The notes beneath the pieces were generated by a model that saw only the letters and a list, made by a program, of their open reading frames with translations, was not told where the DNA came from and did no database searches. A stretch of DNA of 64,000 nt from Escherichia phage mobillu: sequence record MN850622.1, one strand, 5' to 3'. The translations under genes and the position numbers were made by a program. Below are positions 2,715 to 45,800 of this stretch, piece by piece. Numbering within the stretch: position 1 is the stretch's first letter; every line of letters begins with the position of its first letter.

Positions 2715-2733
2715 AAATTGTATTGAGGTAAAC

Positions 2734-3450
2734 ATGGGAAAACATAACACAATGAAATATATCAAAGCCGCAGATTTTCAAACCGCATTTAAAGCAGTCA
2801 ATCGTGAAATTTTAGAAAACCCGGAATTCGTAACTGATTCTCGTATTGGACGTTGTAATGAAATTGGGTCTATGACAGTAGTTGTTGACACTCCATCATC
2901 ATTCAAAATGACCGACCCACGTATTAACCGCATCTCTTATGAATACGCCGAAGATTTCTGGAAGTTTATGATTTCTGGTGGTACCAACGCAGAAGAAGCG
3001 TTTAAGGCATATCCTAATGTCGCTAAATTTATTTCTAAACCAAAATCAGATGTTTTGCCGGCGAACTTCAACACTTTCTACGGTCCTCGCATTGCGGCCC
3101 AATTACCAGCTCTTCTAAAAGAACTTAAAGAGAAGCCTAACTCCCGAAGAGTTGTGTTCCAAATTCTAGAAAGTTCTGATCAGGCTTTGCTTGATTCAGA
3201 CGAAACGCTTGAATATCCATGTACTGACTCAGTGACTTATTATATTCGTGATGGTAAGCTTTATACCCACTGTCATATGCGTTCTCAGAACTGTGCTGTT
3301 GTTATGCAGTTGGATTTTTATCTCCAAGGAAAATTACTTCATTATATCGCTAACGAATGTGGTGTAGAAGTTGGTGATTATACTCATACCATGGTAAGTG
3401 CCCATGTGTTTGAACGTGATTTTGATTATGTTAAAGGATTCCTTGACTAA
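2734..3450 (+). CDS. 42: dCMP hydroxymethylase (thymidylate-synthase superfamily), gene 42 homolog
   Basis: GAGGT RBS; SRR and YPCTD catalytic-Cys motif, MRSQN motif, Asp at position +31 from catalytic Cys (equivalent to T4 gp42 Asp179 / TS Asn177); syntenic with T4 gene 42 next to uvsX. Confidence 0.75.
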   Translation: MGKHNTMKYIKAADFQTAFKAVNREILENPEFVTDSRIGRCNEIGSMTVVVDTPSSFKMTDPRINRISYEYAEDFWKFMISGGTNAEEAFKAYPNVAKFISKPKSDVLPANFNTFYGPRIAAQLPALLKELKEKPNSRRVVFQILESSDQALLDSDETLEYPCTDSVTYYIRDGKLYTHCHMRSQNCAVVMQLDFYLQGKLLHYIANECGVEVGDYTHTMVSAHVFERDFDYVKGFLD

Positions 3451-4349: not shown

Positions 4350-4350
4350 A

Positions 4351-4899
4351 ATGGCTAAAATTATTTTAGTAGATGGCCCAGATAATGCTGGTAAAACAAC
4401 TTTCATTAATGACATAATGGAAATTAGTGAAAGATATGTAAAGATTGATTTCCCTAAACGAACAGTTGATGGGCGTTTCGATGTTAAGTCTCGAAATGAA
4501 GTTGGCTGCTTCGAAACGATGTTGAATTATTTAGACCCTACTAAGATTTATCTGTTAGACCGTGGATATATTAGTAACTGGGTTTATGGACGTATTCGAC
4601 AAGATGCGGACTCGGTTCTTGACGTTTATGAACAGGATTATGTTCGTCTTTGCCAAAACCATGATGTGTTCACAATTATTTTAACACGTAACGAAATGAC
4701 TGAAAGTTTTGAAGACGACCTTATTACTTTGTCTTCATTCGGTTTTAATACAGTCATTTCACATTTTGAAGAGTTTGCAATTCATAACAAAATCCAAACG
4801 TATCAATTACTTAATCATGATGGTGCTAACAAAGTTATAGGATTTAATGCAAGCGAACGTAATTATTTGATTACAGAAATTATCAAATGGGCTCGTTAA
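4351..4899 (+). CDS. P-loop nucleotide/nucleoside kinase-like protein (TMPK/dNK-like)
   Basis: Walker A VDGPDNAGKTT near N-terminus; LDRGYISNWVYG resembles DR(Y/H) motif of thymidylate/deoxynucleoside kinases. Confidence 0.6.
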   Translation: MAKIILVDGPDNAGKTTFINDIMEISERYVKIDFPKRTVDGRFDVKSRNEVGCFETMLNYLDPTKIYLLDRGYISNWVYGRIRQDADSVLDVYEQDYVRLCQNHDVFTIILTRNEMTESFEDDLITLSSFGFNTVISHFEEFAIHNKIQTYQLLNHDGANKVIGFNASERNYLITEIIKWAR

Positions 4900-4997: not shown

Positions 4998-6170
4998 ATG
5001 TCTGATTTAAAATCTCGTTTGATTAAAGCTTCTACTTCTAAAATGACTGCAGACTTGACTAAGTCTAAGCTGTTTAATAATCGCGATGAAGTCCCTACTC
5101 GTATTCCAATGTTGAATATTGCACTAGGTGGTGCACTGAATGCCGGGTTGCAATCAGGCTTGACTATTTTTGCTGCTCCTTCTAAACACTTTAAAACGTT
5201 GTTTGGACTGACCATGGTTGCAGCATATATGAAGAAATATAAAGATGCAATCTGTTTGTTTTATGACTCAGAATTCGGTGCTTCGGAATCTTATTTTCGT
5301 TCAATGGGTGTTGATTTAGACCGTGTAGTTCATACTCCGATTCAATCGGTCGAACAACTTAAGGTTGATATGACTAATCAGCTTGACGCGATTGAACGCG
5401 GTGATAAAGTTATTATCTTTATTGACTCGATTGGTAATACTGCATCTAAGAAAGAAACCGAAGATGCATTGAACGAGAAAGTTGTAGGTGATATGTCTCG
5501 TGCTAAGGCACTTAAATCTCTGTTCCGCATTGTGACCCCGTATCTGACTATTAAAGATATTCCGTGTGTTGCAATTAACCATACAGCAATGGAAATCGGC
5601 GGATTGTATCCTAAAGAGATTATGGGCGGTGGTACAGGTATTCTTTATTCTGCCAACACGGTATTTTTTATCTCTAAACGTCAGGTTAAAGAAGGTACAG
5701 AATTGACCGGTTATGACTTCACGTTGAAAGCAGAAAAATCTCGCACAGTTAAAGAGAAATCTACTTTCCCGATCACGGTTAATTTTGATGGCGGTATTGA
5801 CCCATTCAGTGGCTTGTTAGAAATGGCAACTGAAATTGGTTTTGTAGTTAAGCCTAAAGCTGGTTGGTATGCTCGTGAATTCCTTGACGAAGAAACAGGT
5901 GAAATGATTCGTGAAGAAAAATCATGGCGTGCTAAAGCTACTGATTGTGTAGAATTCTGGGGACCTTTGTTTAAACACAAACCTTTCCGAGATGCAATTG
6001 AAACTAAATATAAACTAGGTGCTATCTCTTCTATTAAAGAAGTTGATGACGCTGTTAACGACCTTATTAATTGCAAAGCAACAACTAAAGTTCCGGTTAA
6101 AACTTCTGATGCTCCATCTGCAGCAGATATAGAAAACGACCTTGACGAAATGGAAGATTTCGATGAATAA
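4998..6170 (+). CDS. uvsX: UvsX RecA-like recombinase
   Basis: 390 aa; strong N-terminal and core similarity to T4 UvsX; synteny uvsX-40-41. Confidence 0.95.
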   Translation: MSDLKSRLIKASTSKMTADLTKSKLFNNRDEVPTRIPMLNIALGGALNAGLQSGLTIFAAPSKHFKTLFGLTMVAAYMKKYKDAICLFYDSEFGASESYFRSMGVDLDRVVHTPIQSVEQLKVDMTNQLDAIERGDKVIIFIDSIGNTASKKETEDALNEKVVGDMSRAKALKSLFRIVTPYLTIKDIPCVAINHTAMEIGGLYPKEIMGGGTGILYSANTVFFISKRQVKEGTELTGYDFTLKAEKSRTVKEKSTFPITVNFDGGIDPFSGLLEMATEIGFVVKPKAGWYAREFLDEETGEMIREEKSWRAKATDCVEFWGPLFKHKPFRDAIETKYKLGAISSIKEVDDAVNDLINCKATTKVPVKTSDAPSAADIENDLDEMEDFDE

Positions 6171-12765: not shown

Positions 12766-13287
12766 ATGGCACACTTTAACGAATGTTCACAACTTATTTC
12801 TGGTGTTGATAAAGCAGAAGAAGCTTATTTTAATGCTCTGATTCACGAAGATAAAGACCCACTGCAGGTAATGCTTGATATGCAGAAATCTTTACAGGTT
12901 CGTCTGGCAAATGACAAGCCTGAACATAACAAACATCCTGATGAATTGGCCACTGCTGGCGATGTTGTTGATTGGCTGCGTAATCAGAAAGATTATATTG
13001 ATGATGAATTTCGTGAACTGCTGACTTCACTTGGTGGTATGTCCAACGGTGAAAAAGCTGCCAGCTCTGTGTGGAAGCCATGGAAAGCACAACATGCTGA
13101 ATATCGTAATCGTCGTATTGATGAACTGTCTCCTGAAGACCAGCTCGAAATTAAATTCGAAATGATTGATATTCTGCACTTCGTTCTGAACATGTTCCAA
13201 GGTCTGGGTCTTTCTGCCGAAGAAATCTTTAAACTGTATTATCTGAAGAATGCTGAAAACTTTGCTCGTCAAGACCGAGGTTATTAA
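12766..13287 (+). CDS. 56: gp56 dCTPase/dUTPase (MazG-like dCTP pyrophosphatase)
   Basis: 173 aa; MAHFNEC...DKDPLQVMLDMQ...EFRELLTSLG...ILHFVLNMF near-identical pattern to T4 gp56. Confidence 0.9.
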   Translation: MAHFNECSQLISGVDKAEEAYFNALIHEDKDPLQVMLDMQKSLQVRLANDKPEHNKHPDELATAGDVVDWLRNQKDYIDDEFRELLTSLGGMSNGEKAASSVWKPWKAQHAEYRNRRIDELSPEDQLEIKFEMIDILHFVLNMFQGLGLSAEEIFKLYYLKNAENFARQDRGY

Positions 13288-23409: not shown

Positions 23410-25227
23410 ATGATTAAAAATGAAATTAAGGTATTGTCAGATGTAGAACATATTAAGAAACGTAGTGGTATGTATATTGGTTCTTCGGCTAAAGAAGCCC
23501 ACGAGCGTTTTTTGTTTGGTAAATATCAACAAGTTGAATATGTTCCTGGTCTGGTTAAATTAATCGATGAGATTATTGACAACTCGGTTGATGAAGCTAT
23601 TCGTACATCATTTAAGTTTGCAAATAAAATTGATGTGCAAATTAAAAATAATCAAGTTTCGGTGGAAGATAACGGACGTGGTATTCCTCAAGGTTTAGTT
23701 ACCGACCAAACAGGTGAACAAATTCCTGGACCTGTAGCAGCCTGGACTATTCCAAAGGCCGGTGGTAACTTTGGTGATGACTCTGAACGCAAGACTGGTG
23801 GTATGAACGGCGTCGGGAGTAGTTTAACTAATATCTTCTCTACGTTGTTTACAGGCATCACGTCAGATGGCGAAAACGAAATCACTGTTAACTGTTCAAA
23901 CGGAATGGAAAACAAATCATGGTCTTCTAAGAAATCTAAAGGTAAAGGCACTAAAGTAATCTTCACTCCTGATTTCTCTTCATTTGAAGAGCATAATTTA
24001 TCTCAAATTTATTTAGATATTACTTTAGACCGACTTCAAACATTGGCAGTCGTTTATCCTGATATCAAGTTCACATTTAATGGTAAAAAGGTTGATGGTA
24101 ATTTTAAACGATTTGCTAAACAATTTGGCGAAGATAACATCATTCAAGAAAATGATAAAGTCTCTATAGCATTCACAACATCACCAGATGGCTTCCGTCA
24201 TTTAACTTATGTGAATAACATCCATACTAAAAATGGTGGTCATCATGTTGAATGTGTAATGGATGATATCTGTGAACATCTTTTGCCTGGTATTAAAAAG
24301 AAATATAAGGGTATTGAAGTCACTAAAGCTCGTGTTAAAGAATGTCTCACAATGTTGATGTTTATTAGAGACATGAGCAACATGCGTTTTGATTCTCAGA
24401 CTAAAGAACGTTTAACGTCAACGTATGGTGATATTCGTAATCATATCCAATTAGATGCTAAGAAAATTGCTCAGGCACTTCTTAAAAACGAAGCCTTGAT
24501 TATGCCTATTGTTGAAGCAGCATTAGCTCGTAAATTGGCAGCAGAAAAGGCTGCAGAAACTAAAGCAGCTAAAAAGGCAACTAAAGCTAAGGTTCATAAG
24601 CATATTAAAGCTAACCAATGTGGTAAAGATGCAGATACGACATTGTTTTTAACAGAAGGTGATTCGGCAATTGGTTATCTCATTGATGTTCGTGACCGTG
24701 AACTACACGGCGGATTCCCATTACGTGGTAAGGTGATGAATAGCTGGGGTATGTCATATGCTGATATGATGAAGAACAAAGAGCTCTTTGATATCTGTGC
24801 TATCACGGGTCTTATTCTTGGTGAAAAGGCAGAGAATACGAACTATCGTAATATTGCAATTATGACCGATGCCGATCATGACGGTCTTGGAAGTATTTAT
24901 CCGGCTTTGCTTGCTTTCTTTAGTAATTGGCCTGAATTGTTTGAACAAGGACGTATTCGCTTTGTTAAAACGCCTGTAATTATTGCACAAATTGGCAAAA
25001 CTCAAAAATGGTTTTATACTGTAGCTGAGTATGAAGAAGTTAAAGATACACTGCCTAAGCATAGTATTAGATACATCAAGGGATTAGGCTCCCTTGAAAA
25101 GTCAGAATATCGTGAAATGATTCAGAACCCTGTGTACGACGTAGTTAAACTTCCTGAAAATTGGAAAGAACTCTTTGAAATGTTGATGGGTGATGATTCA
25201 GAACTTCGTAAAGAATGGATGTCCTAA
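23410..25227 (+). CDS. 39: DNA topoisomerase II large subunit (fused gp39+gp60, GyrB-like ATPase/Toprim)
   Basis: 605 aa; GHKL ATPase motifs (DNSVDEA, GG.NG), Toprim region; length equals uninterrupted 39-60 fusion. Confidence 0.9.
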   Translation: MIKNEIKVLSDVEHIKKRSGMYIGSSAKEAHERFLFGKYQQVEYVPGLVKLIDEIIDNSVDEAIRTSFKFANKIDVQIKNNQVSVEDNGRGIPQGLVTDQTGEQIPGPVAAWTIPKAGGNFGDDSERKTGGMNGVGSSLTNIFSTLFTGITSDGENEITVNCSNGMENKSWSSKKSKGKGTKVIFTPDFSSFEEHNLSQIYLDITLDRLQTLAVVYPDIKFTFNGKKVDGNFKRFAKQFGEDNIIQENDKVSIAFTTSPDGFRHLTYVNNIHTKNGGHHVECVMDDICEHLLPGIKKKYKGIEVTKARVKECLTMLMFIRDMSNMRFDSQTKERLTSTYGDIRNHIQLDAKKIAQALLKNEALIMPIVEAALARKLAAEKAAETKAAKKATKAKVHKHIKANQCGKDADTTLFLTEGDSAIGYLIDVRDRELHGGFPLRGKVMNSWGMSYADMMKNKELFDICAITGLILGEKAENTNYRNIAIMTDADHDGLGSIYPALLAFFSNWPELFEQGRIRFVKTPVIIAQIGKTQKWFYTVAEYEEVKDTLPKHSIRYIKGLGSLEKSEYREMIQNPVYDVVKLPENWKELFEMLMGDDSELRKEWMS

Positions 25228-25255
25228 GCTCCTTCGGGAGCTTCATTTTAATTTT
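25227..25255 (+). terminator. hairpin (possible terminator) after gene 39
   Basis: agctccTTCGggagct, weak T-run. Confidence 0.45.
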
Positions 25256-25269
25256 AATAAGGCTTAATT

Positions 25270-26370
25270 ATGAAAGTTATGTTTATCCCATCTCGCGCAG
25301 TCCCATTTAACCCAGAACGTGTACAAGGTGGTCTTGAAGCAGTACATTTAAATGTGTTGAAATATCTTGTGTCCATCGGTGCTGATATTGATTATATCGG
25401 CTTTGATAATGACACGTTTGGTGACTGGAAGGTTAATCATCATCCTGTTGGTCATCTGACTAAATTCAGTCTAGGTATGAGTTATACTATGGCTCGTAAG
25501 ATTGTTGAACTAGCCGGCATTAATGAGTACGATTTCGTTGTTACAATGGAACCGACCAAACTAACCGTTCAGGCAATTAAAGACGCAGGTCTCTCTAAAG
25601 TTCATAAGAATTTTATGGCAACACCATTTGAACCAGTATCTCGTGGCATTGTTCAAATTTGGGACCAGACTATTCAAATTCATAAGAACGGTGGTAAGAG
25701 TTATGCTCCTACTAAAGCCTTCCGTGAATTTGAACGCAAATATTGTTATATGACTTCAGGTCTGACTGACAAAATTGATTATGATTATTGGCGAGCAAAT
25801 CCGTTGTTTGAAGCCGAAGATTATCCGGTTATTTGTTTGAATGATAAACCTGAAGTTCTTCCGGCGACTGATCTGATTATTAGTGCACAACGTTATGACA
25901 CTAAAATGCGTCGTACTGATGTTGCTCTTGAAGCGATTAAAGCACTAGGCGAAAATGGTGCAGGATACTGTCCTAGTAAATGGGCACCACCAGCTAAATA
26001 TCCTGTTATTATTGATGCTCCACACAGTGAAATCATGGAACGTCTTAAAATGGCTAAAGCACTTATTAATACGTGTCCTGACACAGGTACGGTAGAGAAT
26101 AGTTCTATTGAAGCCATCTCTAAAGGTGTCCCTGTAATCCAGTTAGTTTTTAAGGATTATCCTCATGCGACATTCGAATACGACCCGGATACTGTGCGTG
26201 TAGAAATTGATTCCTCTACTCCTAAGAAAGAAGTAGTTGCGCTTTACACAAAAGCTGTATTAGAATTCACTGACACATACGAAGCTCGAGTTAAACGTGC
26301 TGAAGCAGTATGGAAGAAATATAATCGAGATGCAGTTGTTGCGATGTGGGATAAAATCTTCACAGCGTAA
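25270..26370 (+). CDS. GT-B fold glycosyltransferase-like protein (candidate DNA hmC glycosyltransferase)
   Basis: 366 aa; N-terminal MKVMFIPSR...GGLE resembling GT4/T4 alpha-gt N-terminus; inserted between 39 and rIIA. Confidence 0.45.
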   Translation: MKVMFIPSRAVPFNPERVQGGLEAVHLNVLKYLVSIGADIDYIGFDNDTFGDWKVNHHPVGHLTKFSLGMSYTMARKIVELAGINEYDFVVTMEPTKLTVQAIKDAGLSKVHKNFMATPFEPVSRGIVQIWDQTIQIHKNGGKSYAPTKAFREFERKYCYMTSGLTDKIDYDYWRANPLFEAEDYPVICLNDKPEVLPATDLIISAQRYDTKMRRTDVALEAIKALGENGAGYCPSKWAPPAKYPVIIDAPHSEIMERLKMAKALINTCPDTGTVENSSIEAISKGVPVIQLVFKDYPHATFEYDPDTVRVEIDSSTPKKEVVALYTKAVLEFTDTYEARVKRAEAVWKKYNRDAVVAMWDKIFTA

Positions 26371-26386
26371 ATCCTGAATAGCCTGA

Positions 26387-26437
26387 GGCACTATTACACA
26401 TAAGATGATAGATTATATGGTCTTTAGTAATAGTGCC
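26387..26437. repeat. 11-bp inverted repeat with about 29-nt AT-rich loop
   Basis: ggcactattac ... gtaatagtgcc between glycosyltransferase-like gene and rIIA.1-position ORF. Confidence 0.5.
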
Positions 26438-26462
26438 CTAGGAATCTACTGAAGAGAATATT

Positions 26463-26663
26463 ATGAGAACATATAACGTGGACTTGGAACTTTTTGATAA
26501 AGCAGTGCTCCGGGAATTCCGGCTTATCCAAAGATTTTTTGATATCGAATCAGCAGAGTCCTTTAAAGAACGCTTTAAAGAAATTCGATATAAAATACAA
26601 ACCGATACAGCTACTAAAGAAGAACTTCTTGAAGTAGCAGAAATTTTTAAACGTAACTTGTGA
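26463..26663 (+). CDS. hypothetical protein (rIIA.1 position)
   Basis: 66 aa ORF immediately upstream of rIIA. Confidence 0.45.
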   Translation: MRTYNVDLELFDKAVLREFRLIQRFFDIESAESFKERFKEIRYKIQTDTATKEELLEVAEIFKRNL

Positions 26664-26675
26664 TGAGAGAAAAAT

Positions 26676-28889
26676 ATGATTATTGAAACGGCTAAAGAAA
26701 CGATTATTGGTTCTGGTGGTAAAAGCACAGCATTTACTATTCAAGGCAATAGCAAAGTTTATAAGATTTTGTCTAATGACCTTTATACAAACAAAGAATT
26801 GGCTTGTGTACGTGAATTAATCACAAACTGTATTGATGGGCAAATTCTTAATGGTTGCACTGATAAGTTTATTGTTCAGGCACCAGGTCGTTTAGACCCA
26901 CGTTTTGTAGTTCGAGACTTTGGTCCTGGTATGAGTGATTTCACCATTCGAGGTAATGACGAAGAGCCAGGAATTTATAACTCATATTTTGCTTCAACTA
27001 AAACATCGAGTAACGATTTCATTGGTGGATTCGGACTCGGCTCTAAAGCTCCATTAGCATATACCGATACGTTTAACCTTACGTCTTATCACAACGGCGA
27101 AGTTCGTGGTTACGTAATCTACCAAGATGACACGGGTCCACAAATTAAGCCGACCTTTGTAGATAAGATGGGTCCTGATGACCGTACTGGTGTAGAAGTA
27201 GTCGTACCGGTTAACCCGGAAGATTTTGAAAAGTTTGCATCCGAAATTGCGTATGTTATGCGTCCTCTAGGTGATATTGCAGAAGTTCGTGGTGTTAAAG
27301 ATATTAAATACTTCCCTGAATTTGACGATGTATATTTGGCCAAGGAAGCTCCATGGGGTGAACGCGGTAATATCATGGCTGTTTACGGTGGTATTGTATA
27401 TCCAATCGGAAGTGTTATTAAAGAACAAACATGGATGATGACGCGATGCACTACAGCTTATATTAAATTCCCTATGGGTGAACTAGATGTAGCTCCGTCT
27501 CGTGAAGCATTGTCATTTGATAAACGTACGGTAGCAAATATCCATAAACGCGTTGCAGAAATCGATGCTAAATTGTTCGCTGAAGATTCTAAGAAATGGA
27601 TTGATTGTAAATACCCACGTCATGTGTTCCGTGAAATTGATTCTCTTGGCTATACCGCTCGTAAATACATGGAAAAGGCTGGGTCTAATATTGAATCACT
27701 GAAATACTCTAAAGAACAACTAACTTATTCTGAGTTGTACAAACGTTTTAAAATGGGGCCTGAGTGGTGTAATCTTGGCGTCGTATATGATATCGTTGAA
27801 TCCCCTCGTCTTCGTCGTATTCGTGAAAGTGGTAGCTCAACGGCAACCATTTCAATTAACAGTCTGATTGGCATTAACATTAAAAACGTTGAAATTGTTA
27901 TTGACGACGTTAAGGGACGCGTTCCATTAATGCGAGCTCTTAATTCAATTGAAATGTCTAAAGACGAGGTTAAATTAACTGGTAAAGTTCCACGCGGTTT
28001 TGGTAAAAGCGTACTATTCGTTGACCCTACAGACGAAGATGCAATGAAACTTCTGGAACGCCTTAAAGTTATCTTTGTTGGCGACAACATTAACATGTAC
28101 AAGACTTCAGAGCTTTTACAAATCGTTAAGCCATGGATTGAAGTCAGGAAACGAACTAATGAGCCTCGTCCTAAATCGCCAAGTGCTCATCGATTCTTTA
28201 AGAATGAAAACGATGTTTGGGTATCAGAAGACCTCTTTATTCCGGCAAGTGAAGCAGATGAAATCCAAGGTTATGCTATAGTTCGTAATCGTTCTAATGC
28301 TGAATGTCTTGATGCAGATAAAGGTTGGTTGAACTATGACTCTAATTTCTTGACCCGTATTGCTGATTTGTCAGATATTAAAGAGTTCACTGTAGTCCGT
28401 CCACAGATTGCTAAGAAAGTTCGTAAACTTGGTGAAGTAGAATGCTTGTTCGAAAAATCAATTAATGACTATATTACGCTAATCGATAAAGTAGATTATG
28501 ATGAGTATGTATCACCAAGTCGTAGAGCACAGCCCTATCTAAACCATATTACTCGTAATGAAGAGCTTAACTTCCTTAGTAAGTATTTTAGCTCTAAGAA
28601 CAAAGAAATCAGTAAAGATTTTGCAAAACTCTCCACAGTAAATAATCGCTGGGGATGGAATCGATTCGCAGGTGCTACTAATACAGACCTGAATAAGAAG
28701 TTAGAATTGTGTGCTAAAATTTTCGATAAGCTTAAAGATAATGCTTACGATAATGATGATAAAATGGTTATTGAATTCGAAACCAATTATCATATTGTGA
28801 CAGAATACATGGGACGACGTGGTACTCTTTCAAAAGAACAGGTCGCTCAAATCGTTAAATTCATGAAGGCCGTGGAAGCGGCCAAATAA
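26676..28889 (+). CDS. rIIA: rIIA membrane-associated GHKL-ATPase-like protein
   Basis: 737 aa; N-terminus and GGFGLGSK, VRDFGPGM motifs match T4 rIIA. Confidence 0.9.
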   Translation: MIIETAKETIIGSGGKSTAFTIQGNSKVYKILSNDLYTNKELACVRELITNCIDGQILNGCTDKFIVQAPGRLDPRFVVRDFGPGMSDFTIRGNDEEPGIYNSYFASTKTSSNDFIGGFGLGSKAPLAYTDTFNLTSYHNGEVRGYVIYQDDTGPQIKPTFVDKMGPDDRTGVEVVVPVNPEDFEKFASEIAYVMRPLGDIAEVRGVKDIKYFPEFDDVYLAKEAPWGERGNIMAVYGGIVYPIGSVIKEQTWMMTRCTTAYIKFPMGELDVAPSREALSFDKRTVANIHKRVAEIDAKLFAEDSKKWIDCKYPRHVFREIDSLGYTARKYMEKAGSNIESLKYSKEQLTYSELYKRFKMGPEWCNLGVVYDIVESPRLRRIRESGSSTATISINSLIGINIKNVEIVIDDVKGRVPLMRALNSIEMSKDEVKLTGKVPRGFGKSVLFVDPTDEDAMKLLERLKVIFVGDNINMYKTSELLQIVKPWIEVRKRTNEPRPKSPSAHRFFKNENDVWVSEDLFIPASEADEIQGYAIVRNRSNAECLDADKGWLNYDSNFLTRIADLSDIKEFTVVRPQIAKKVRKLGEVECLFEKSINDYITLIDKVDYDEYVSPSRRAQPYLNHITRNEELNFLSKYFSSKNKEISKDFAKLSTVNNRWGWNRFAGATNTDLNKKLELCAKIFDKLKDNAYDNDDKMVIEFETNYHIVTEYMGRRGTLSKEQVAQIVKFMKAVEAAK

Positions 28890-28898
28890 GGAAACATT

Positions 28899-29846
28899 AT
28901 GTACAATATCAAATGCTTGTCCCAAGAAGAACAGTTAGAAGCTTACGGCCTGGTTGAATCAGGCAAATGGACTCGTAAAGAAATTGCCGATTACTTCGAC
29001 ATTTCAACAGATACTCTTCGTAAGATTGTTAAGAATTTTAAAGCAGAAGGCGTTGTCCCTGAAGCAAACGATGCCTCTTATGTAATCGAAGAAATTCCAG
29101 AAAATGATGAACCTATTATCGGCGGACATCGTCCAGAAATCGTATGGAACGCATCATCTAAATTTATTTCAATCATTGAAGGACGCGTAGCATACAATGC
29201 GACCCCATCAAGTCATGCAAATTTTGAAGAAATTAAAGCTAATCTGGTCGCAGGAAACCTTAGTAAAGCTGTCGAACTTATTAACATCAAGAAAGCTATT
29301 AGTAAGTTTGTTGACGGTAATGTTGTTATTGAAGGTGGTAGTTTATTTTATCAAGGTATAGAGATTCGTTCTGGCCTGGTTAATCGTATTATTGATTCTA
29401 TGGAAAAAGGCGAAGACTTTAAATTCTATCTACCGTTCCTTGAAAACCTGTTAGAAAACCCGAGCGAAAAAGCTGTACAACGTTTATTCGACTTCTTGGT
29501 TGCAAATGATATTGAAATCACTGAAGATGGTCATTTCTATGCGTGGAAAGTAGTTCGTAAGGACTATTTAGACTGCTATAGTGGTACATTTGATAACTCC
29601 CCAGGTAAAGTTGTTTCAATGCCTCGTACTCGAGTTAACGACGATGATACTCAAACCTGCTCCCGTGGTCTCCACGTTTGTGCTAAATCTTATATTCGCC
29701 ACTTTGGTTCAAGCTCAGATAAAGTTGTGAAAGTTAAAGTTCATCCACGTGATGTTGTATCCATCCCGGTTGACTATGGTGATGCTAAGATGCGTACATG
29801 TCGTTATGAAGTAATTTCAGACGTTACTGAATTGTTTGCAGAATAA
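28899..29846 (+). CDS. rIIB: rIIB protein
   Basis: 315 aa; MYNIKCL..., FDFLVANDIEITEDG, SMPRTRVNDDDTQTCSRGLHVC match T4 rIIB. Confidence 0.85.
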   Translation: MYNIKCLSQEEQLEAYGLVESGKWTRKEIADYFDISTDTLRKIVKNFKAEGVVPEANDASYVIEEIPENDEPIIGGHRPEIVWNASSKFISIIEGRVAYNATPSSHANFEEIKANLVAGNLSKAVELINIKKAISKFVDGNVVIEGGSLFYQGIEIRSGLVNRIIDSMEKGEDFKFYLPFLENLLENPSEKAVQRLFDFLVANDIEITEDGHFYAWKVVRKDYLDCYSGTFDNSPGKVVSMPRTRVNDDDTQTCSRGLHVCAKSYIRHFGSSSDKVVKVKVHPRDVVSIPVDYGDAKMRTCRYEVISDVTELFAE

Positions 29847-36592: not shown

Positions 36593-37252
36593 TTATTTAG
36601 CCCTTCCTAGTATTCGGACCGCTTGGTTGCATATAGCCGCTAAGCGATCTTCCTCAAGTATATTATTCCCCTTATACCAATACATCGTCACAGTTCCAGC
36701 ATAGATGTTATCCAAATTAAAGTATGGACAACTATACATATAAGAAAGTTCGGCAGTCTTAGATTTTGTAGGCAAAAATGCAAATTCTGATTTAGATGAG
36801 AAATGACGGCCACTTAAATGAATTATATATTCATTGGCCGTTTTATCCACCGGGAATCCGCCAAGGGACTTTTCAGAAATTGTGCTAGGTAGTTTGCCTT
36901 CATAAGCTATAAGGTCGACAAAATAATTTAAGTTTTTAGGTCTGAAAGAATACACAGCACTAAAATCTGCACCAGATGAGATATGAACTATTTGCAGTTG
37001 TTCTAGAGCCGCAGATTCAAAACGTAAAGCTCGTTCTTTTTGGATTATTTCAGTATAAGTATCATACTTAGCTCTTACATAATAATCCAGCAAAATACTT
37101 CCTTTGTACCATATTAGTGCCATTAGGAACAAAAGAATAATTACCGCTACTCGGGACATTAAAACCTTTCCAGTAGCGTTATCTTTGAAAATACGATCTA
37201 GCAACCCAAATAGAATATCACTAAGCGAAAATGACACTTTTGGTGTTGCCAT
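36593..37252 (-). CDS. t: holin T
   Basis: 219 aa; SFSLSDILFGLLDRIFKDNATGKV...MYSCPYFNLDNIYAG matches T4 holin; AAGGAGG RBS and late promoter upstream. Confidence 0.9.
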   Translation of the reverse strand: MATPKVSFSLSDILFGLLDRIFKDNATGKVLMSRVAVIILLFLMALIWYKGSILLDYYVRAKYDTYTEIIQKERALRFESAALEQLQIVHISSGADFSAVYSFRPKNLNYFVDLIAYEGKLPSTISEKSLGGFPVDKTANEYIIHLSGRHFSSKSEFAFLPTKSKTAELSYMYSCPYFNLDNIYAGTVTMYWYKGNNILEEDRLAAICNQAVRILGRAK

Positions 37253-37261
37253 AATACCTCC

Positions 37262-37813
37262 TTACTTAAAGATATTTATAATTCGTTTAACAAGTGATTT
37301 GCTTTCAAGGTCAGGGAATTTAGGGAATTCGCCGCCAAGATGTTCATGTTTTTCTAAAAGGGCAAAGAATTTTTTGAGCTCTTTAAATTTTCGTTTTTCT
37401 TCTCTATTAGCAACCTCTGCATCAATAAGAGAACTTAAAACACTGAATAATTTATAGAGTTCATGAATTTTCTTATCACGTTGAACTACCCGCTTATACG
37501 CTTCATCTTCCTTCCACCCGTCGTCAGTCCAAAGGTCAAATTCACCTGGTTCTTCTGTAGTGACATTTTGAAGAGCACCTGGAGTGTCAATAACAATTTT
37601 TTGCTTATCATAAGTCCATACTGTTTTTCCGCGATGGTCTTCAACATATACCCATTCTTGCTCGCGTTCATCAAATATAACAGCATAGCCTTCTTTAGGG
37701 TCTAAAGGTTTTTTTGGTGTCGAATGAGCCGGAAATCCTACGCCTTTTAATGGTTTATAATTTTCTTCTTTGTAAAATTCTTTAGTGTCAAAATAATAGT
37801 GATAGAGTTTCAT
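37262..37813 (-). CDS. 38: gp38 tail-fibre assembly chaperone (Tfa-like)
   Basis: 183 aa; MKLYHYYFDTKEFYKEENYKP, EDHRGKTVW Tfa signature; downstream of gene 37. Confidence 0.85.
   Translation of the reverse strand: MKLYHYYFDTKEFYKEENYKPLKGVGFPAHSTPKKPLDPKEGYAVIFDEREQEWVYVEDHRGKTVWTYDKQKIVIDTPGALQNVTTEEPGEFDLWTDDGWKEDEAYKRVVQRDKKIHELYKLFSVLSSLIDAEVANREEKRKFKELKKFFALLEKHEHLGGEFPKFPDLESKSLVKRIINIFK
37273..37280 (-). promoter_or_regulatory. late promoter (TATAAATA) for holin t
   Basis: Reverse-complement TATAAATA, then AAGGAGG and ATG of t. Confidence 0.6.
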
Positions 37814-37820
37814 ATTATAA

Positions 37821-37838
37821 AAAGGGACCGAAGTCCCT
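37821..37838 (-). terminator. UUCG hairpin between genes 37 and 38 (terminator and split-RBS element)
   Basis: On - strand: TAAGGAG-aagggaCTTCGgtccctt-tttataat-ATG(38). Confidence 0.55.
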
Positions 37839-37843
37839 TCTCC

Positions 37844-40800
37844 TTATGCTAAACGAACGATATAGTTAAAAGCAACGTTTTTAACTGTGTTTTCTGTATT
37901 TCCTGTGGCATTTACAGTTATTGTATGTCCATGGGAACCAATTGCAACAGTATGAGAATGAGCACCAATACCTACCGAATGGGTATGAGCACCAATACCC
38001 ACAGTATGAGCATGGTTACCAGTAGCGCTAGTAGTTCCTGACCAACTATGAGTGTGGGCACCGTCTGAAGAAGTTTTGGCTATATTCGACCCTGCAGTAG
38101 CACCGTTCACGGTTCCAGTGAATTTAGCGTTGGCGTTTGCACCTACACTATTATATCCGTCATAGAATATGTTATTGGGTATGCCGGCTTGTATCTGAGG
38201 ACCTGAACGCGCGTGTTGGTGCGCACCAGCGGAACTAGTATTACCACTCACTGTATGGTTATGGTTACCAGTGGTATTACTGGTCTTAGTACCATAATCA
38301 AAGCTTGAAGTCGTTTTGCTACCGTAATCAAAACTAGAAGTGGTCTTAGTACCCAAATCTGTGCTTGATGCACTTGCACTATGGCTATGTGACTTAACAC
38401 CGTCTGCTTCTGTACTCAATACAGCACGCCCAGATGGTTTACCCTTGATAGTTTGACCACGCATATCAGGCAGAGCGCCGGAAGGATACACCGCAGCTAA
38501 CTTAGGATACAAGTCAGCATCAAATGTTTGACCTTCCATTATGGCATAACCTTCAGGAGGTGTATCAGTAGGCCAAGGAATCGGAGCACCAATAGGATAA
38601 CTTGAGACAATATCCGTCTTAAGGTTATTTATTGTGGTATTCAAGTTAGCAAAATTACCAGTGCCGCCAGTGATGTTACCATCAGTACCGAATTGAGCAT
38701 TACCGACTTTAAGAGGTTTAGCTATATCAACCGTATCAGAGTTTAATGCAATACCATGGGAGTAGGTGTAACTGTGCATACGAACGATGTTACCGCCATC
38801 GCCAATACCTAAATACCATTTCGGAACATCTGCTTTACGTCCTTGAATGAAGTTAGAAGACTCTTGTGTTGGAGCATTTATTCTAATAGCATCTGATGCC
38901 ATATTTACTGTTATTCGTTGACCAGCCGTAGTTCCAGCCGCTTCTACTTTAAATCTACCGCCGCCGATATCTACATCATGATCCATGGAAACTTTACCAT
39001 TACTTAATGTAATATAGAATGGACGTAAATTAGAAATACCACCTGATTCACCAGCATTCTGCGGAGTTGGAATAATATAAAACTTATCTTCAGAACGACG
39101 GAAAATAGCACCATATTCAGCATCGTAAATACGGAAAGCATCAGCAGTCCCGCCAATTTTAACCTGTCCGGTAATTGAGGCACCACCTTGAACAAACAAT
39201 CCATTATTCATTGTAACGTTGCCAACTAGAGTGCTTAATCCGTTAACTCTAAGACTTCCGTCGGTTATTAAGCTTCCTCTAGCATTAACCTGTCCATTGA
39301 ACTGAGTTACAACAGGGCCTGTAGTTTCAGAACCGGTCGGAGCTACGCGTTGAGAATAGAAATAATAACCTTGGCCATCAGAAACCTCAAATACGGTTTC
39401 TCGAGCTTTATCACCAGTAGCATTAAATGAGTTACCCCATGCTTTCACGGTCACATAACTTTTGTTCTGACCTGCACGAGTACCGCCTTCCCACATTATT
39501 TGCTTAGTGCCATCAATACCTGAAGCTGCTTTAAAAACTAGAGAAGCATTAGTTCCATCACCATTAAAATATAATCCGTTATTAAGTTTTAACGTTTGAA
39601 CAGAAGCGATGGTACCATCAGCACGCAAATTTAGCGAATTTGAACCAGTTTTAATATCTAAAATGCCGGGCTCAACAAGAAGTCCATCGCCCATACTAAC
39701 GGACATACGACCTGTACCACGGAAATAGTGATACATCTTAGCATTGCTGCTATATCCGATATGAGTCTGTCCATCGCCGTTATTATTACCATCAACATCG
39801 GTACGCGCAGTAAACATTGCTTGGTTATTATTTGGGAAATCCCAAGTAGAACCTGAATCTCGGCTATAACCAACCATCAATTTCTTGGTGCTGTTAATAC
39901 CATTGTTCAAAATGGTAGCCGAAGAAATACCGTTGGCCATTAAATCGATAACGCCGTCGCGAACCCATTTAATACCTGTATCGTTATCACCAATGGCAAT
40001 ACCTTTACCAAACGAAACCAATGGATAACGTCCTTGGTCACCAACATCAGCAAGACCTATACCTATCGAATTAGCAACAGACATACGCCCATCTGTGGTA
40101 TAAGACCATTGATAAACTTCGGCATTACGTCCCGTCCAATACGAAATATTCTGTGGTTTACCTGAACGAGCATCAGCAACTTCATGGAAAATAGCAGAAG
40201 AAACATGTCCGCGGAATTTACGAAGGTAGTTTATACCATTAGTATCCAAATCCGTTTCGGTTGGAGTATACTGCCAAGTCGGTAATGAAACTAAATCATA
40301 TGCAGTATCAATATTAGTGTCCCAAGATTTAGTGCTCACATTGATGTTTTTGGTAATAACTTTAGGACCAATTAAAGAACCAGCTTTAGTTTCAATATTA
40401 CTTTGAGTAACTAAATATCCATTAGATACTAATAAACTTCCGGAATCAACTTGAAAATTACCGTTTCGATTAAAAGTCCAGTATTTTGAAGTCCCGGTTT
40501 CATCAATATAATGGAATTTAAAACTACCTTCGTTTACTAATGTACCAGCAGAAAAAGTTCCATCTTTATAGCGTTGTTTAATCAGTGGATGGTATTCTGA
40601 AACAGAAGTAGTTGAACTTAAATCTGTAAAGATAGGGGCTTTATTCGAATGTTGGTTAGCCCAAGCGCCATTTCCAGTGGTTTTAGGTAAAAATTCAATG
40701 TATTTTCCTGCATAAACAAACTGATTTCCATTGAGATTATACGTGCCGTTTTGTAAATAATCACCAGTTTGAGTTACATTACCGTTAATATCCCCGCCCT

Positions 40801-40960
40801 TAGCAAAGCCTAGGCTAATAATATTACCGAGGTCATCTTTGGTAAAAAGAGTTCGATCTTTTAAGTTTATCGCTAATTCGCCTTCGGCTAATTGTGCTGC
40901 AGTAGGATTAACTCCTGCTACTTTGCTTCTTTTAAATTGTATCTGTTTTAATGTAGCCAT
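37844..40960 (-). CDS. 37: gp37 long tail fibre distal subunit (receptor-binding)
   Basis: 1038 aa; N-terminus [13 protein letters not shown] and C-terminal His-box region ([24 protein letters not shown]...NYIVRLA) match T4 gp37. Confidence 0.95.
38294..38353 (-). repeat. tandem in-frame 30-nt repeat inside gene 37 (receptor-binding region)
   Basis: Encodes [10 protein letters not shown] / [10 protein letters not shown] twice, with synonymous nucleotide differences. Confidence 0.6.
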
Positions 40961-40968
40961 AAGTCCTC

Positions 40969-41634
40969 TTAATAATAGCCGAAATCTTGAACAGAATCTT
41001 TAATTACAATCTGGTCGAAACGAGGAACATGATTAGCCTCAGACGCCGGATTCTGTGAGAAAAAGTTTGGTGCTGTTAAAGTACCAGTCATGGTATCGCC
41101 TTTACGCAATACACGGGAATTTGCGTTATCCGTAACAATATTTATTCTTCCATCAACATAATCTTTTCTTGTGAGATCATTTGCTGCAACCGGAGCAGTC
41201 ATATCGCTTCTTACTTGACCAGCTGCCGACACAACGCCTTTTGTATTAATATCACCATTACGTGTATTGATTACTACAGTTCTACCAGCTGTTCCTTGTG
41301 ATGATTTAAAACCAATACCGTACCATGAAACAATATCAATATTTGCTGTAACAAAAGTAGCTGCATCACCGTTACCTGGATAAACACCACATGGGTTTGT
41401 ATTGTTTATAGCATATGGTATTTGCACACCACTGTTAAATGTTACCTTTGAAGCGTAAGTACCACCGTTTGCTTTAGAAACGAAATCGTTATCAGCAGCT
41501 TGTGGCTTATTATATTCCGAATAGAGTTTAAACGTTTTATACAGGACGTCATCACCTGCTGGCATTAAAGGGAAATTACCTTGATGCCATATAACGGCAC
41601 CACCAGTTGTACTACCAGCTTTTAAATCGGCCAT
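40969..41634 (-). CDS. 36: gp36 long tail fibre hinge protein
   Basis: 221 aa from ATG 41634 ([21 protein letters not shown], late promoter upstream); track TTG start 41670 lies in promoter. Confidence 0.85.
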
Positions 41635-41659
41635 AGTTGTCTCCTTATATGTATACCCA

Positions 41660-41667
41660 TATTTATA
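41660..41667 (-). promoter_or_regulatory. late promoter (TATAAATA) for gene 36
   Basis: Reverse-complement TATAAATA between gp35 terminator hairpin and AAGGAG-ATG of gene 36. Confidence 0.6.
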
Positions 41668-41692
41668 CAAAAATGGGAGACCGAAGTCTCCC
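41668..41692 (-). terminator. intrinsic terminator after gene 35
   Basis: On - strand: gggagaCTTCGgtctccc + ATTTTTG. Confidence 0.65.
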
Positions 41693-41697
41693 TAAAT

Positions 41698-42825
41698 TTA
41701 TTCTGATGCTTCTTTAAATTCTTGCCCAAATACCTTACCAGTATCAGTTGAAGATTGAGTAGGTAATGTCATTATGTCTGGAGCACTTAAAGATTCTGAA
41801 ACATAATTTACACGAATACCATTTATACCAAACTCAGCAGGTTTTGAAACGCTTCCATTACATGATACTTCAGTGAATATAACGTTTCTTAATCCACCTT
41901 GCCCGACTGGAGCTGTACGATAACAATAAATCGTGAACCCGTCAGCACCAGCAGGAATTTCTATGTAGTCTTCATATATCTTCCATTCACCTGCAACCCC
42001 ATCAAAGTTTATATCCTTAAATGAAATAGGTGAAGTAGAAGGAGATTTAAAGAAACGAATAGAAAGTCGTGTCGTCCCTTGTGCTAACAAATCAGCATCG
42101 GCCATTAGTTGGAATTTCATATAAAGGAAATCTCCAGGCTTCAATTTATACCCAGCGAGAGGTGTAATAATGGACGTTGTAGGCATCCTTTTAATTTCAT
42201 TATTAGTACCTCCAACAGCAGATAAAAATGTGTCTGTCGATTCGTACGTACGACTAGGGAAGCCGGTAGCACCAATATCATCGATCGTGTCGTACACAAC
42301 ATCAAGTGGTGTACTATAGTCGGTTGAAGTTTTCTTATTACTATACTTAATATGTTCTAGTGCTATAGCATTCTTACCAGAAATATAAAATGCCGAATAA
42401 GAAATGTCCACTATATTTAAAACTTGTTGAGCTAATGGAATAGCAGAACTTCCGGCTTTATTAAACCATGTAAGAACTTCTGGCGGAAAGTTTGTTTTAG
42501 CGTTAGTAACAAGAGCAAATATAAAATTTGAAGAATATGTGTCCATGAAAGTAACAAATGCACTTGACGTGGCGTCGTTTTCAGTAGAGAAATTATATGT
42601 CTTAGATTCAACTACTGCACCCGTTGTAGGATTTATTACACGAACGTTTAATCCAACGGAAAAAACCTGGGACCCAAGTGGATTATCCTGGAACTTAATA
42701 TAAGCAGGAGATGTTGATAGCGGGCAAGAGCCCGCTATGCTTAATTTAAATCGTACTGAATTGCTTTCCGATAAAAATGGCGTTTGGACGTATCCTTGTC
42801 CAAACTTAGCCATAAATTTTTCCAT
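41698..42825 (-). CDS. 35: gp35 long tail fibre hinge connector
   Basis: 375 aa; MEKFMA...LSESNSVR, C-terminal PAEFGINGIRVNY match T4 gp35. Confidence 0.85.
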   Translation of the reverse strand: MEKFMAKFGQGYVQTPFLSESNSVRFKLSIAGSCPLSTSPAYIKFQDNPLGSQVFSVGLNVRVINPTTGAVVESKTYNFSTENDATSSAFVTFMDTYSSNFIFALVTNAKTNFPPEVLTWFNKAGSSAIPLAQQVLNIVDISYSAFYISGKNAIALEHIKYSNKKTSTDYSTPLDVVYDTIDDIGATGFPSRTYESTDTFLSAVGGTNNEIKRMPTTSIITPLAGYKLKPGDFLYMKFQLMADADLLAQGTTRLSIRFFKSPSTSPISFKDINFDGVAGEWKIYEDYIEIPAGADGFTIYCYRTAPVGQGGLRNVIFTEVSCNGSVSKPAEFGINGIRVNYVSESLSAPDIMTLPTQSSTDTGKVFGQEFKEASE

Positions 42826-42833
42826 AATACCTC

Positions 42834-45800
42834 TTATTCAATCCACTCGAATTTAACAGATTTATTCACAGGGTCTGGAATAATGCGGACATTACCAATC
42901 CTTAAGAAATCCCTTATTGTCAAGTTTCCGATTGTTGCATTATCAGAAGGTAAAGCACCAATATCAGAAGGTTGAGGAGGGTTTCCACCATCAAATACCT
43001 GAACAAAACTTGACCAAGAATTTTTAGTTTTCTGCCATGTACGAGTCCAACGGGTTGTACGTGCTTCTGGAGTTGTTGGATAAGTAATCCAATCTTGGTA
43101 AAGTGAATCAAGTGTGTTACCAAACTGAGTCAGTGTACCAGGAGATTTAACTTCTTCGCCACGTTCTAAGTATGGAAGCCCAGTCACTTCATTAGTTTTT
43201 TCAACCATTTTAAAATAACCTGGGAACTGGTTATAAGTGGCTGAATCGTTAATATCAATTGACCAGAATCCTACATTATCAGATGTTGGCGCACGGGTAT
43301 ATAAATCGGATGTTTTAGTACCCTGAGAACGAATTCTCGAGTTAACAGTCAAACCGCCAGAATTTATAGTAGCACCTTTGGCAATGATTAAGCTTTCACC
43401 AATCGTAACTTGTCCGGATTGATTATTAATTGATAATGGACGTAATCCATTAAATCCACCGGCCTGATCACCAGATGCAGTAAGCATAAAATATGTGCTG
43501 CCGCCATCATTGCGAATAAAGAATCCGTAATCACCACTAATTGCTCTAAATGCATTTGCAGACTTGCTAATGAATTCGCCATTGGCTGTAACTGAACGAC
43601 CAAATGTTGCAACGCCATTCGCATTTAACGTGCCTGAAGCGTTAACATTTATTGGCATCACAGTACCATTAATGCTAAACGTTATATTCCCAGCTTTATT
43701 ACGTTGAGAATAAAAGTGATTAGATGTTTCATCACCAACTTCAAATACAGTAGAACGTGTTGTATCTGAACCACCACCACCAAATTCATTTCCCCAAACT
43801 CTGATAGTCATCGTCTGTGCTGGGTTAGTTCCAGTCTGAGGTCCTTTCTCAAAAATCAGACGAGTTGCCGTTCCAGTATTAGAAATAGTTAATGTACTAT
43901 TTGCCGAAACTGAACCACCAAACGTAGCAGTACTAGTTGATACAAGAGGGGCACTCAGATTCGTTTGTTGGGTTAAGGTTAGTGAACCATTAACCGTCTG
44001 TGCAATGTCCCTACGAATGAACTGAGATGAATCTAGGCCATCTAATAAATTTGCGTCAGCAGCTTTTGCTTTTAATGGCAAATAGTTAGCAAGTACACGG
44101 TTTAATTCATATGGAGAAATAGCATAACTATTTTTTTCATATGATTCTAAAGGTTGTGTTGAACCAACTGTATCATTACCAACGAATGTAATTGAACCAG
44201 ATGAAGTTTTAACAAAACCTCTTATTGCAGTAGTAGCAGCCCATGTTGGTTCATTCTGGACAATCCATTTTAAATTCTTAGGAGATACAGCAGTATTAGC
44301 AGAAGTTCCTGTTATAGTTTCAGCCTGAGTAGCAACCTTAATTACGCCTTCAGACGTTTCAGTGGACTTAGTCCCTAAAAGCTTTTTAGGAGTAATAAGA
44401 ACATCATCTAAAGTTCCTGCATTAGATTCTGCCTGAGTCGCTACGCGAAGTGTACCACGTTGTGTTTCATTTGCTTTAGAAATATCAAGAGTATAATGGT
44501 TCCACAAGGTTCCTTCTTCAATAAGTCCAGAATCAGAATTAACACTGGTACGGTCAGAAGAATCAAAATGAGTTTTAATTTTCAGTGGAGTCGAGATACG
44601 AGTATCATCAGTTCCAGTATCAAATTCGACTTGCGTAGCAAGTTCGGCTATGCCGGATAATCCTTCCGTAGCTTTCCTATCATTTAACGTCTTAGGCGTT
44701 ACTGCACGTGTATAATCAGTCCCAGCATTAGTTTCTGCTTGCGTAGCAATTTCAATTAAACCAATACGTCCATCAGTAGAAGTTTTCTTATGTAGTGTTT
44801 CAGGAGTTACTACAGCGTGAGAATAACCTGCTTGTGATTGACCAGCAATTACTTCACTATCAACAGCTAAAATTACTGCACCTTGTTGAGCATAAGTTGC
44901 TTTATATTGGTCAAGGGCTTTAGGAGAAATAGTTAAATTATTTATGGTTTTATTATAAACGTTAGTGCCTGCAGCACCACGAGTTTCAGCAGGAGTAGCA
45001 GAAGTAGTTGATACATATTTAACTATACCAGATAGTGTTTCAGAGCCCTGACGTGCCTGCAATTTCTTAGGTGTAATAATCGTTGTGTCATCAAGACCAG
45101 CATCGGTTTCGGTCTGAGTAGCAATTTCGGCAAGACCACGACGAGTTTCAGTTGCTGTACGCTCATTTAGTTTTTTAGGCGTAACAATAGTATCATCTAC
45201 AAATGTTGCTGTGGAATTCTGGTTAACTTGTGCTGTTGTGGCAATTTTAGCGATACCACGTCGAGCTTCAGTTGCTGTACGATTTGCCAATGTTTCCGGA
45301 GTAATAGCAACTTCTTTAGCTGGAGTATTCTCTAAATCAACATTTGCTTGCGCTTGAGTAGCAAGAGCAATAACACCTAAACGAGCTCGTGTAGCATCAG
45401 TTCCAGCATCAACACGTTCTACAGTAGGGACGTTTTGTTGAACAACCCAATAACGTGTACCAGCAACGGTGTCTTCGATATACGCTAATTCTAATACAGG
45501 AACATATGAAGTAGTGCCATTGAATTCTAGTTCAGTAACAGAGACCCATTGAGCATCAGGTGGATATTCAGAACGTTTAGGGAACTGAAGCAATGCAACA
45601 GAAGAAGCAATTGTATCACCTTCGGCAGCTTTAATTTTTACTGTTTGGCCTTTACGCATGTAGTTCATTGAAATTTTAACAGTGTCACCACTCAAAATTC
45701 CGGAAGGCAGCGTAAGATTAATAGTTCCGGCTGTAGCGTTATTTGTGCCAAAAATAAGAACTTCTTCATTTGGACGAATATTTGAATCCGCACGGATAAT

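Follow-up and report, generated by a model that had tools for sequence, protein, structure and literature searches.

A GT-B glycosyltransferase gene between gene 39 and rIIA of Escherichia phage mobillu, a probable second DNA arabinosyltransferase

The locus between gene 39 and rIIA

The DNA analysed here is a stretch of 64,000 nucleotides (nt) from Escherichia phage mobillu (sequence record MN850622.1), referred to below as the window. The gene in question, ORF366, is an open reading frame (ORF) of 366 amino acids that lies between topoisomerase gene 39 and rIIA, at 25270..26370 on the + strand, as an earlier note made from the letters of this DNA had described it. That note proposed the product as a glycosyltransferase of DNA containing 5-hydroxymethylcytosine (hmC); the results below point instead to a probable role as the second of two arabinosyltransferases acting on a different modified base. 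The ORF starts with ATG, and the N-terminus of its product reads MKVMFIPSRAVPFNPERVQGGLE. It is a genuine gene, aligning end to end with a PHROG family (366 positions, E 9e-222) and matching a solved protein at E 4e-247.

A ribosome-binding site read from the sequence, TAAGG (25258..25262, +), stands 7 nt 5' of the ATG. Further upstream, at 25226..25243 (+), a stem-loop with a perfect 7-bp stem (AAGCTCC paired with GGAGCTT) and a TTCG tetraloop is followed by the T-rich tract CATTTTAATTTT. This stem-loop overlaps the stop codon of gene 39, is the sole terminator-like site within 24900..26800, and may serve as a terminator-like or an RNA-stabilising hairpin. A promoter search of the 42-nt gap between gene 39 and ORF366 found no promoter-like site, the scan count being not above that of shuffled sequence. 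Because no promoter was found there, ORF366, which shares its strand with the genes around it, probably forms one transcript with gene 39, by read-through from upstream early or middle promoters, and early or middle expression of this kind would suit a DNA-modifying enzyme. The GC content of ORF366 is 0.38-0.40, similar to that of its flanks, so a recent horizontal acquisition is without compositional support.

Gene 39 (23410..25227, +) encodes a topoisomerase II large subunit of 605 amino acids with gyrase-B, HATPase and Toprim Pfam matches and 79% identity to T4 gp39. The subunit is unsplit, of the RB69 '60plus39' type, without the T4 split into 39 and 60, the mobA insertion or the translational bypass of gene 60. 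At the place of ORF366, T4 holds gene 60, 60.1 and a mobA pseudogene, in agreement with the earlier description of gene 60 and small ORFs at that position. Downstream of ORF366 follow rIIA.1 (26463..26663; PF24210, E 2e-30), rIIA (26676..28889) and rIIB (28899..29846). The 92-nt gap between ORF366 and rIIA.1 contains a 16-nt inverted repeat (arms 26382..26397 and 26427..26442, 88% complementary, 29-nt spacer) that encloses the AT-rich stretch gatagattatatgg. This repeat may form a hairpin that regulates rIIA.1 and rIIA, or a structure that occludes their promoter.

Identity, family and fold of ORF366

The source phage is a Mosigvirus (RB69-like), and ORF366 is the ortholog of RB69ORF003c, also called RB69 gp3 (NP_861693). 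Megablast placed the ORF366 gene in 155 of 50,697 phage records, all of Escherichia or Shigella Mosigvirus-type phages, at 90-99% identity. The RB69 match is RB69ORF003c at 2520-3620, with 97.5% nucleotide identity, and the closest nucleotide match is NicPhage (98.9%). Gene order in the RB69 annotation is identical: 60plus39, ORF003c, rIIA.1, rIIA. The earlier note had mentioned a novel transferase reported near rIIA in phages of the RB69 type, and the transferase reported for RB69 in 2018 is indeed this ortholog. A sequence search of the PDB with ORF366 returned one match, at about 97% identity over the full length (9iqz and 9ir0, released July 2025), for which the structure-library titles are 'phage HY126 glycosyltransferase' and the same 'with UDP' (uridine diphosphate). 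The RB69, HY126 and mobillu enzymes are the same gene, of the same length and in the same place from 60plus39 to rIIA.1, with few substitutions and nothing suggesting a functional difference. By proxy of the HY126 protein deposited with UDP (9ir0), ORF366 is predicted to bind a nucleotide-sugar donor in its C-terminal domain.

The PHROGs assignment of ORF366 is phrog_8302, of unknown function. Scans of Pfam (E <= 1) and NCBIfam retrieved zero families, and naming of the family therefore cannot rest on these libraries of hidden Markov models (HMMs). The family is small, with 5 clusters at 90% identity among 5.8 billion proteins, and an exhaustive profile search yielded 12 representatives among 1.84 billion proteins, an alignment that is shallow and could not be made deeper. 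The two weakest profile matches are ordinary GT4-like proteins; the most distant alone (P0015, 19% identical) matches Pfam, scoring above the gathering threshold of PF13439 and just below that of PF00534. Two distant members (P0009 and P0010) on metagenomic phage contigs (L008 8001..9140 and L009 3040..4224) are 35-38% identical to ORF366 and have no pathway genes in view; one has a DPBB_1-domain gene on one side and large structural genes on the other, and the second follows the genes for DNA ligase and dsbA. Evidently this type of transferase has no conserved place in the genome.

An AlphaFold2 model of ORF366, built from a 6-sequence alignment, had an overall predicted local distance difference test score (pLDDT) of 60.6, with residues 109-187 unmodelled. 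It recovered 9iqz and GT-B neighbours, at a quality insufficient for acceptor-site analysis. All of the structural neighbours of ORF366 are GT-B enzymes, with two Rossmann-like alpha/beta domains and a cleft between them. The GT-B fold proposed in the earlier note thus stands, no non-glycosyltransferase fold having appeared in the structure comparison. With the GT4-type enzymes PimA (2gej), WaaG (2iv7/8b5s) and BshA (3mbo), ORF366 shares the two-Rossmann GT-B architecture and a conserved C-terminal Arg/Arg/Glu set, the residues R208, R214 and E281 of the C-terminal domain being invariant across the ORF366 family. It differs from these enzymes in having no Pfam GT4/Glycos_transf_1 match, no EX7E motif and an identity to them of only 10-14%. 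In the corresponding C-terminal stretch (T272-G273-T274-V275-E276-N277-S278-S279-I280-E281-A282) the family-invariant G273 lies eight positions before E281, and the family has E276-x4-E281 where EX7E is absent. 'GT4-like' therefore describes the protein at the level of the fold and not at that of family or motif.

The phage enzymes with which ORF366 had been equated, T4 alpha-gt (CAZy GT72) and beta-gt (GT63), are GT-B enzymes that transfer sugar from a UDP-sugar to modified cytosine in DNA after replication. ORF366 resembles them only in this broad sense, has no sequence homology to them and belongs to a separate family. When profiles were compared, neither T4 alpha-gt nor T4 beta-gt, nor the family of a second GT-B protein of the window, ORF299 (see below), gave a signal with the ORF366 family, a comparison that was underpowered (Neff 2.7 for the ORF366 alignment, the T4 proteins being single sequences).

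The arabinosylation module and the modified base

An RB69-type arabinosylation module occupies the left edge of the window (3..4899), directly upstream of uvsX (4998..6170). Its first ORF (3..851, +), clipped by the window edge, is the C-terminal kinase domain of a bifunctional sugar kinase/UDP-sugar pyrophosphorylase equivalent to RB69 gp52:53/AfhE, with weak APH and fructosamine-kinase-like Pfam matches. The second (836..1237, +) is a HAD-type sugar phosphatase equivalent to RB69 gp51/AfhF (TIGR01689 capsule biosynthesis phosphatase, E 4e-13). The roles of these two ORFs, for the phosphatase in the synthesis of UDP-arabinofuranose, are taken from PMC13326640. There follow a peptidase-U32-family gene equivalent to RB69 gp50 (1295..2455, +), a thymidylate-synthase homolog (2734..3450, +), ORF299 (3450..4349, +) and a P-loop nucleotide-kinase-like ORF equivalent to RB69 gp45 and DLP3 gp78 (4351..4899, +). 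The last has only weak dTMP-kinase and AAA matches, and its positional equivalent DLP3 gp78 is annotated 'putative thymidylate kinase'. The gene for an arabinose-5-phosphate isomerase is expected outside the window. As for the ORF003c and DLP3 gp76-77 type of transferase, ORF366 is accompanied by a 5-hydroxy-deoxycytidine monophosphate (5-hydroxy-dCMP) synthase, genes for synthesis of UDP-D-arabinofuranose (UDP-Araf) and ORF299, all within 3..4899.

The earlier note had taken the presence of gp42, gp56 and alc as pointing to hmC. Two of these hold: gp56, a dCTPase (12766..13287, +) with a Pfam dUTPase_2 match, is 70% identical to T4 gp56 and removes dCTP so that modified cytosine alone is incorporated, and alc (57763..58251) is 52% identical to its T4 counterpart. 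The 'gp42' at 2734..3450, however, is only 24.8% identical to T4 gp42, as against 70-79% for neighbouring core genes, and carries the signature of a 5-hydroxy-dCMP synthase. It is nearly identical to PDB entries 9iqc/9ir2/9iqu (E 8e-161), the codes of which adjoin 9iqz/9ir0. RB69 gp48 makes 5-hydroxy-dCMP using flavin and O2, and D169N (E. coli ThyA numbering), N177D and L143E together form a predictive signature of 5-hydroxy-dCMP synthases (PMC13326640). In an alignment of E. coli ThyA, T4 gp42 and the 2734..3450 protein, the last has RSQN (D169N), MQLD (N177D) and EYPC (L143E), and T4 gp42 retains Asp at position 169. The near-identity to 9iqc and the three-residue signature thus identify the modified base as 5-hydroxycytosine and not hmC.

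The chemistry reported for close relatives is of the same kind. The RB69 nucleoside was determined by mass spectrometry and nuclear magnetic resonance to be beta-D-Araf-(1-3)-alpha-D-Araf-5-hydroxy-2'-deoxycytidine, along with a mono-arabinosyl form (PMC13326640). NicPhage DNA contains mono- and di-arabinosylated cytosine at 1:4, the earlier 'hydroxymethyl' assignment was erroneous, and a second putative transferase was remarked between rIIA and the topoisomerase gene (all PMC13390438). As predicted from the synthase sequence, the acceptor of ORF366 is not hmC, the DNA of its relatives holding 5-hydroxycytosine derivatives only.

ORF299, equivalent to RB69 gp46:47 (RB69ORF046c/047c are the RB69 match), stands beside the synthase at the position that beta-gt has in T4, between gene 42 and uvsX. 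Pfam and PDB sequence searches with ORF299 found no match. Its AlphaFold2 model, built from a 43-sequence alignment, is confident (pLDDT 94.4), and the Foldseek neighbours of the model are all GT-B: MshA (3c4q), HepE and UDP-GlcNAc 2-epimerases. There is no detectable sequence or profile similarity between ORF299 and ORF366. The earlier statement that alpha-gt and beta-gt are lacking was correct in that the window holds no homolog of either (tblastn E > 1), the T4 alpha-gt position (between genes 47 and 55, T4 36.6 kb) falling outside its left edge; it overlooked that the beta-gt position is filled by another GT-B protein. ORF366 is consequently neither the sole nor the best candidate for a glycosyltransferase acting directly on the modified base, ORF299 being a confident GT-B protein whose type universally accompanies the synthase, in 348 phage records. 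ORF299 is probably the first, base-proximal, alpha arabinosyltransferase.

The peptidase-U32-family gene lies between the HAD phosphatase gene and that of the O2/flavin-dependent synthase. It was found in 221 phage records, with identities of 80% or more even between genera, and every host that the search output names is a member of the Enterobacterales or a Shewanella. Neither the DLP3 cluster nor any of the 57 Acinetobacter phages with the pathway has it; the hosts of these phages are strict aerobes. The protein has a weak UbiU match (E 9e-4) and a C-terminal CX4CX3CX2C motif. The U32 family includes the O2-independent hydroxylases UbiU/V, TrhP and RlhA, the last of which is required for 5-hydroxycytidine in ribosomal RNA. 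By analogy with these, the phage protein might provide an anaerobic route to 5-hydroxycytosine that complements the O2-dependent flavin synthase; against this idea, about 40 Escherichia records (apparently JS98-like) have the ORF299 type without the U32 gene. The protein is listed merely as 'sugar or heterocycle reductase' in PMC13326640.

Distribution of the two transferases and arabinose number

ORF366 and ORF299 were compared by tblastn with the 50,697 phage records. The ORF366 type was present in 211: about 155 Mosigvirus-type phages with one copy each, 55 Acinetobacter phages with two each, and one Tegunavirus. It was absent from the Shewanella, Serratia and Klebsiella phages. The ORF299 type was present in 348 records, among them Mosigvirus, JS98-like coliphages and phages of Klebsiella, Edwardsiella, Enterobacter, Yersinia, Pectobacterium, Serratia (LC53, X20), Proteus, Providencia, Shewanella (Thanatos-1) and Acinetobacter, and in many of those listed the matched segment or its neighbour is annotated as thymidylate synthase or dCMP hydroxymethylase. 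In sequence clusters the difference is larger still, with at least 138 for the ORF299 type versus 5 for the ORF366 type. In the single record named 'Tegunavirus...' the ORF366-type match has less than 60% identity, and other Yersinia TG1-type phages have the ORF299 type only; the phage of that record is predicted to be di-arabinosylated, if the match is real.

Thanatos, with an ORF299-type enzyme as its single transferase, is reported to be mono-arabinosylated (a single pentose), and DLP3 DNA is tri-arabinosylated (both PMC13326640); Bas46/47 DNA is reported to be di-arabinosylated. Copies of the ORF366 type number none in mono-arabinosylated Thanatos, one in di-arabinosylated RB69, NicPhage and Bas46/47, and two in tri-arabinosylated DLP3. 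Set against the reported chemistry, these counts give an ORF366-type copy number equal to the number of arabinoses minus one. From this comparison of genomes the ORF366 type is predicted to be an accessory enzyme, the copy number of which tracks the extra arabinoses.

The Acinetobacter phage DLP3 offers a biochemical comparison. DLP3 gp77 and gp76 are 42% and 41% identical in amino acid sequence to ORF366 over about 99% of its length and belong to the same family and pathway type. When the two purified proteins were supplied together with UDP-Araf, RB69 DNA (mono- and di-arabinosylated) was converted to the tri-arabinosyl form in vitro; transfer from UDP-Araf to arabinosylated 5-hydroxycytosine DNA has been demonstrated only for gp76 and gp77 jointly, and is proposed for RB69 gp3 (PMC13326640). 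The two DLP3 paralogs are 58% identical to each other, are both required for the third arabinose, and lie inside the pathway cluster, adjoining the kinase and the ORF299-type gp79. Mosigvirus, by comparison, has a single ORF366 copy about 20 kb away near rIIA and stops at two arabinoses. ORF299, DLP3 gp79 and the Thanatos arabinosyltransferase resemble ORF366 in being GT-B proteins of the same pathway; the ORF299 type, of 299 amino acids, is unrelated in sequence and more widespread.

Proposed role of ORF366

Taken together, the evidence makes it probable that ORF366 is the second, beta-1,3 DNA arabinofuranosyltransferase, acting on mono-arabinosylated 5-hydroxycytosine to which ORF299 (gp46:47) would have added the first sugar. 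Which transferase acts first is inferred from comparative genomics, and the linkage that ORF366 would form is likewise an inference; this order is favoured because the distribution of the two ORFs, the copy number, the biochemistry of the DLP3 paralogs and the published proposal agree. For RB69, gp46:47 as first and gp3 as second transferase were proposed in PMC13326640. Behind this assignment stand observations on the identity and fold of the ORF366 gene product, on its near-identity to a protein co-crystallised with UDP, on the synthase with its 5-hydroxy signature and on the occurrence of the two ORF types among phages. That ORF366 transfers sugar to DNA, as the earlier note held, is very probable, whereas the base-proximal role on hmC that it envisaged is not borne out.

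In the proposed pathway, dCTP would be destroyed by gp56 and dCMP converted to 5-hydroxy-dCMP by the 2734..3450 synthase, with incorporation at replication. UDP-D-arabinofuranose would come from the left-edge module of isomerase, kinase/pyrophosphorylase and phosphatase. Most likely, ORF299 links the first arabinofuranose in alpha configuration to the 5-hydroxyl, and ORF366 then adds to O3 of this sugar a second arabinofuranose taken from UDP-Araf. The product, beta-D-Araf-(1-3)-alpha-D-Araf-5-hydroxy-dC, would protect the DNA against restriction, glycosylase and CRISPR defences.

Several points weigh against this assignment. No single DLP3 transferase was active alone, including on bare 5-hydroxycytosine DNA, and the first arabinosylation step was not reconstituted (PMC13326640). 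The closest structural neighbours of ORF366 are mostly retaining GT4-like enzymes, and formation of a beta linkage from a presumed alpha donor would need inversion. The AlphaFold2 model gives a poor picture of the N-terminal, acceptor domain of ORF366, and the distant members of the family are not clustered with pathway genes.

Among the alternatives, the one that fares best is that ORF366 is the first, base-proximal arabinosyltransferase, acting directly on the hydroxylated cytosine, as in the 2018 proposal read with 5-hydroxycytosine as acceptor. ORF003c was singled out as the arabinosyltransferase by HMM/HHpred analysis (Thomas et al. 2018), an enzyme of this type was the one chosen for crystallography as the 'phage HY126 glycosyltransferase', and the ORF299-type first step is without reported reconstitution in PMC13326640. 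The distribution argues otherwise: in phages of Shewanella, Serratia, Klebsiella, Yersinia and Proteus with the arabinosyl- or pentosyl-5-hydroxycytosine pathway, all have the ORF299 type and none the ORF366 type. Thanatos is mono-modified with a single ORF299-type transferase, and the DLP3 paralogs of ORF366 act on DNA that is already arabinosylated (both PMC13326640). A base-proximal role for ORF366 is on this evidence unlikely.

Glycosylation of an acceptor other than DNA, such as host lipid, lipopolysaccharide (LPS) or protein in the manner of PimA, WaaG and GtfA, is less likely again and would be surprising. It draws on the best non-self structural matches, which are lipid, LPS or protein glycosyltransferases, on the distance of about 20 kb between the Mosigvirus gene and the pathway cluster, and on the distant homologs found amid unrelated phage genes. 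In the phage collection, however, the family is almost confined to phages with the arabinosyl-5-hydroxycytosine module, and in DLP3 its members lie inside that module and modify DNA in vitro (PMC13326640); none of the 12 representatives comes from an annotated cellular pathway. That ORF366 is an hmC-DNA glycosyltransferase, a functional equivalent of T4 alpha-gt or beta-gt, is the least tenable of the alternatives, since the GT-B fold and the arabinosyl-hmC name given to the RB69 base in older literature are its support and the base chemistry described above already contradicts it.

For ORF366 as the second transferase, a question of stereochemistry follows: with alpha and beta linkages made from one donor, one GT-B enzyme must invert and the other retain. 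ORF366 could conceivably be an inverting beta-(1-3)-arabinofuranosyltransferase on a GT4-like scaffold, with a sugar on duplex DNA as acceptor, founding a new CAZy-level family, a suggestion that we advance tentatively and hold to be somewhat doubtful. The family lacks EX7E and has an invariant N-domain acid, E94 or D88, that could act as catalytic base if ORF366 inverts.

Other regions and consequences for annotation

Elsewhere in the window, holin t (36596..37261, -) is only 82% identical to that of RB69, and the C-terminal part of gp34 (42871..43275) has only a 36% match to RB69, whereas the nearby motA and gp52 are 99-100% identical. From this difference it follows that the lysis/tail-fibre region (about 36596..43300) has been exchanged relative to RB69.

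In most public records the ORF366 orthologs bear the label 'hypothetical protein', 'DNA alpha-glucosyltransferase' or 'ATP-binding protein', and 'GDP-mannose-dependent ... mannosyltransferase' is also in use. The 5-hydroxy-dCMP synthase is publicly labelled 'dCMP hydroxymethylase', a frequent name, or 'thymidylate synthase', and some ORF299 orthologs 'RNA polymerase binding protein'. Such labels are misleading for the prediction of DNA modification, and the T4 logic by which gp42, gp56 and alc together mean hmC leads to the wrong chemistry in RB69-type genomes. ORF366 itself was already known, its ortholog having been proposed as the RB69 arabinosyltransferase in 2018, crystallised (structures released in 2025) and proposed as second transferase in 2026. 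There is nothing new in the ORF366 copy of this phage, and the main value of the present analysis is the correction of annotation. Because the bacterial defences that a phage evades depend in part on how many arabinoses its DNA carries, knowing the gene that sets this number helps to predict host range.

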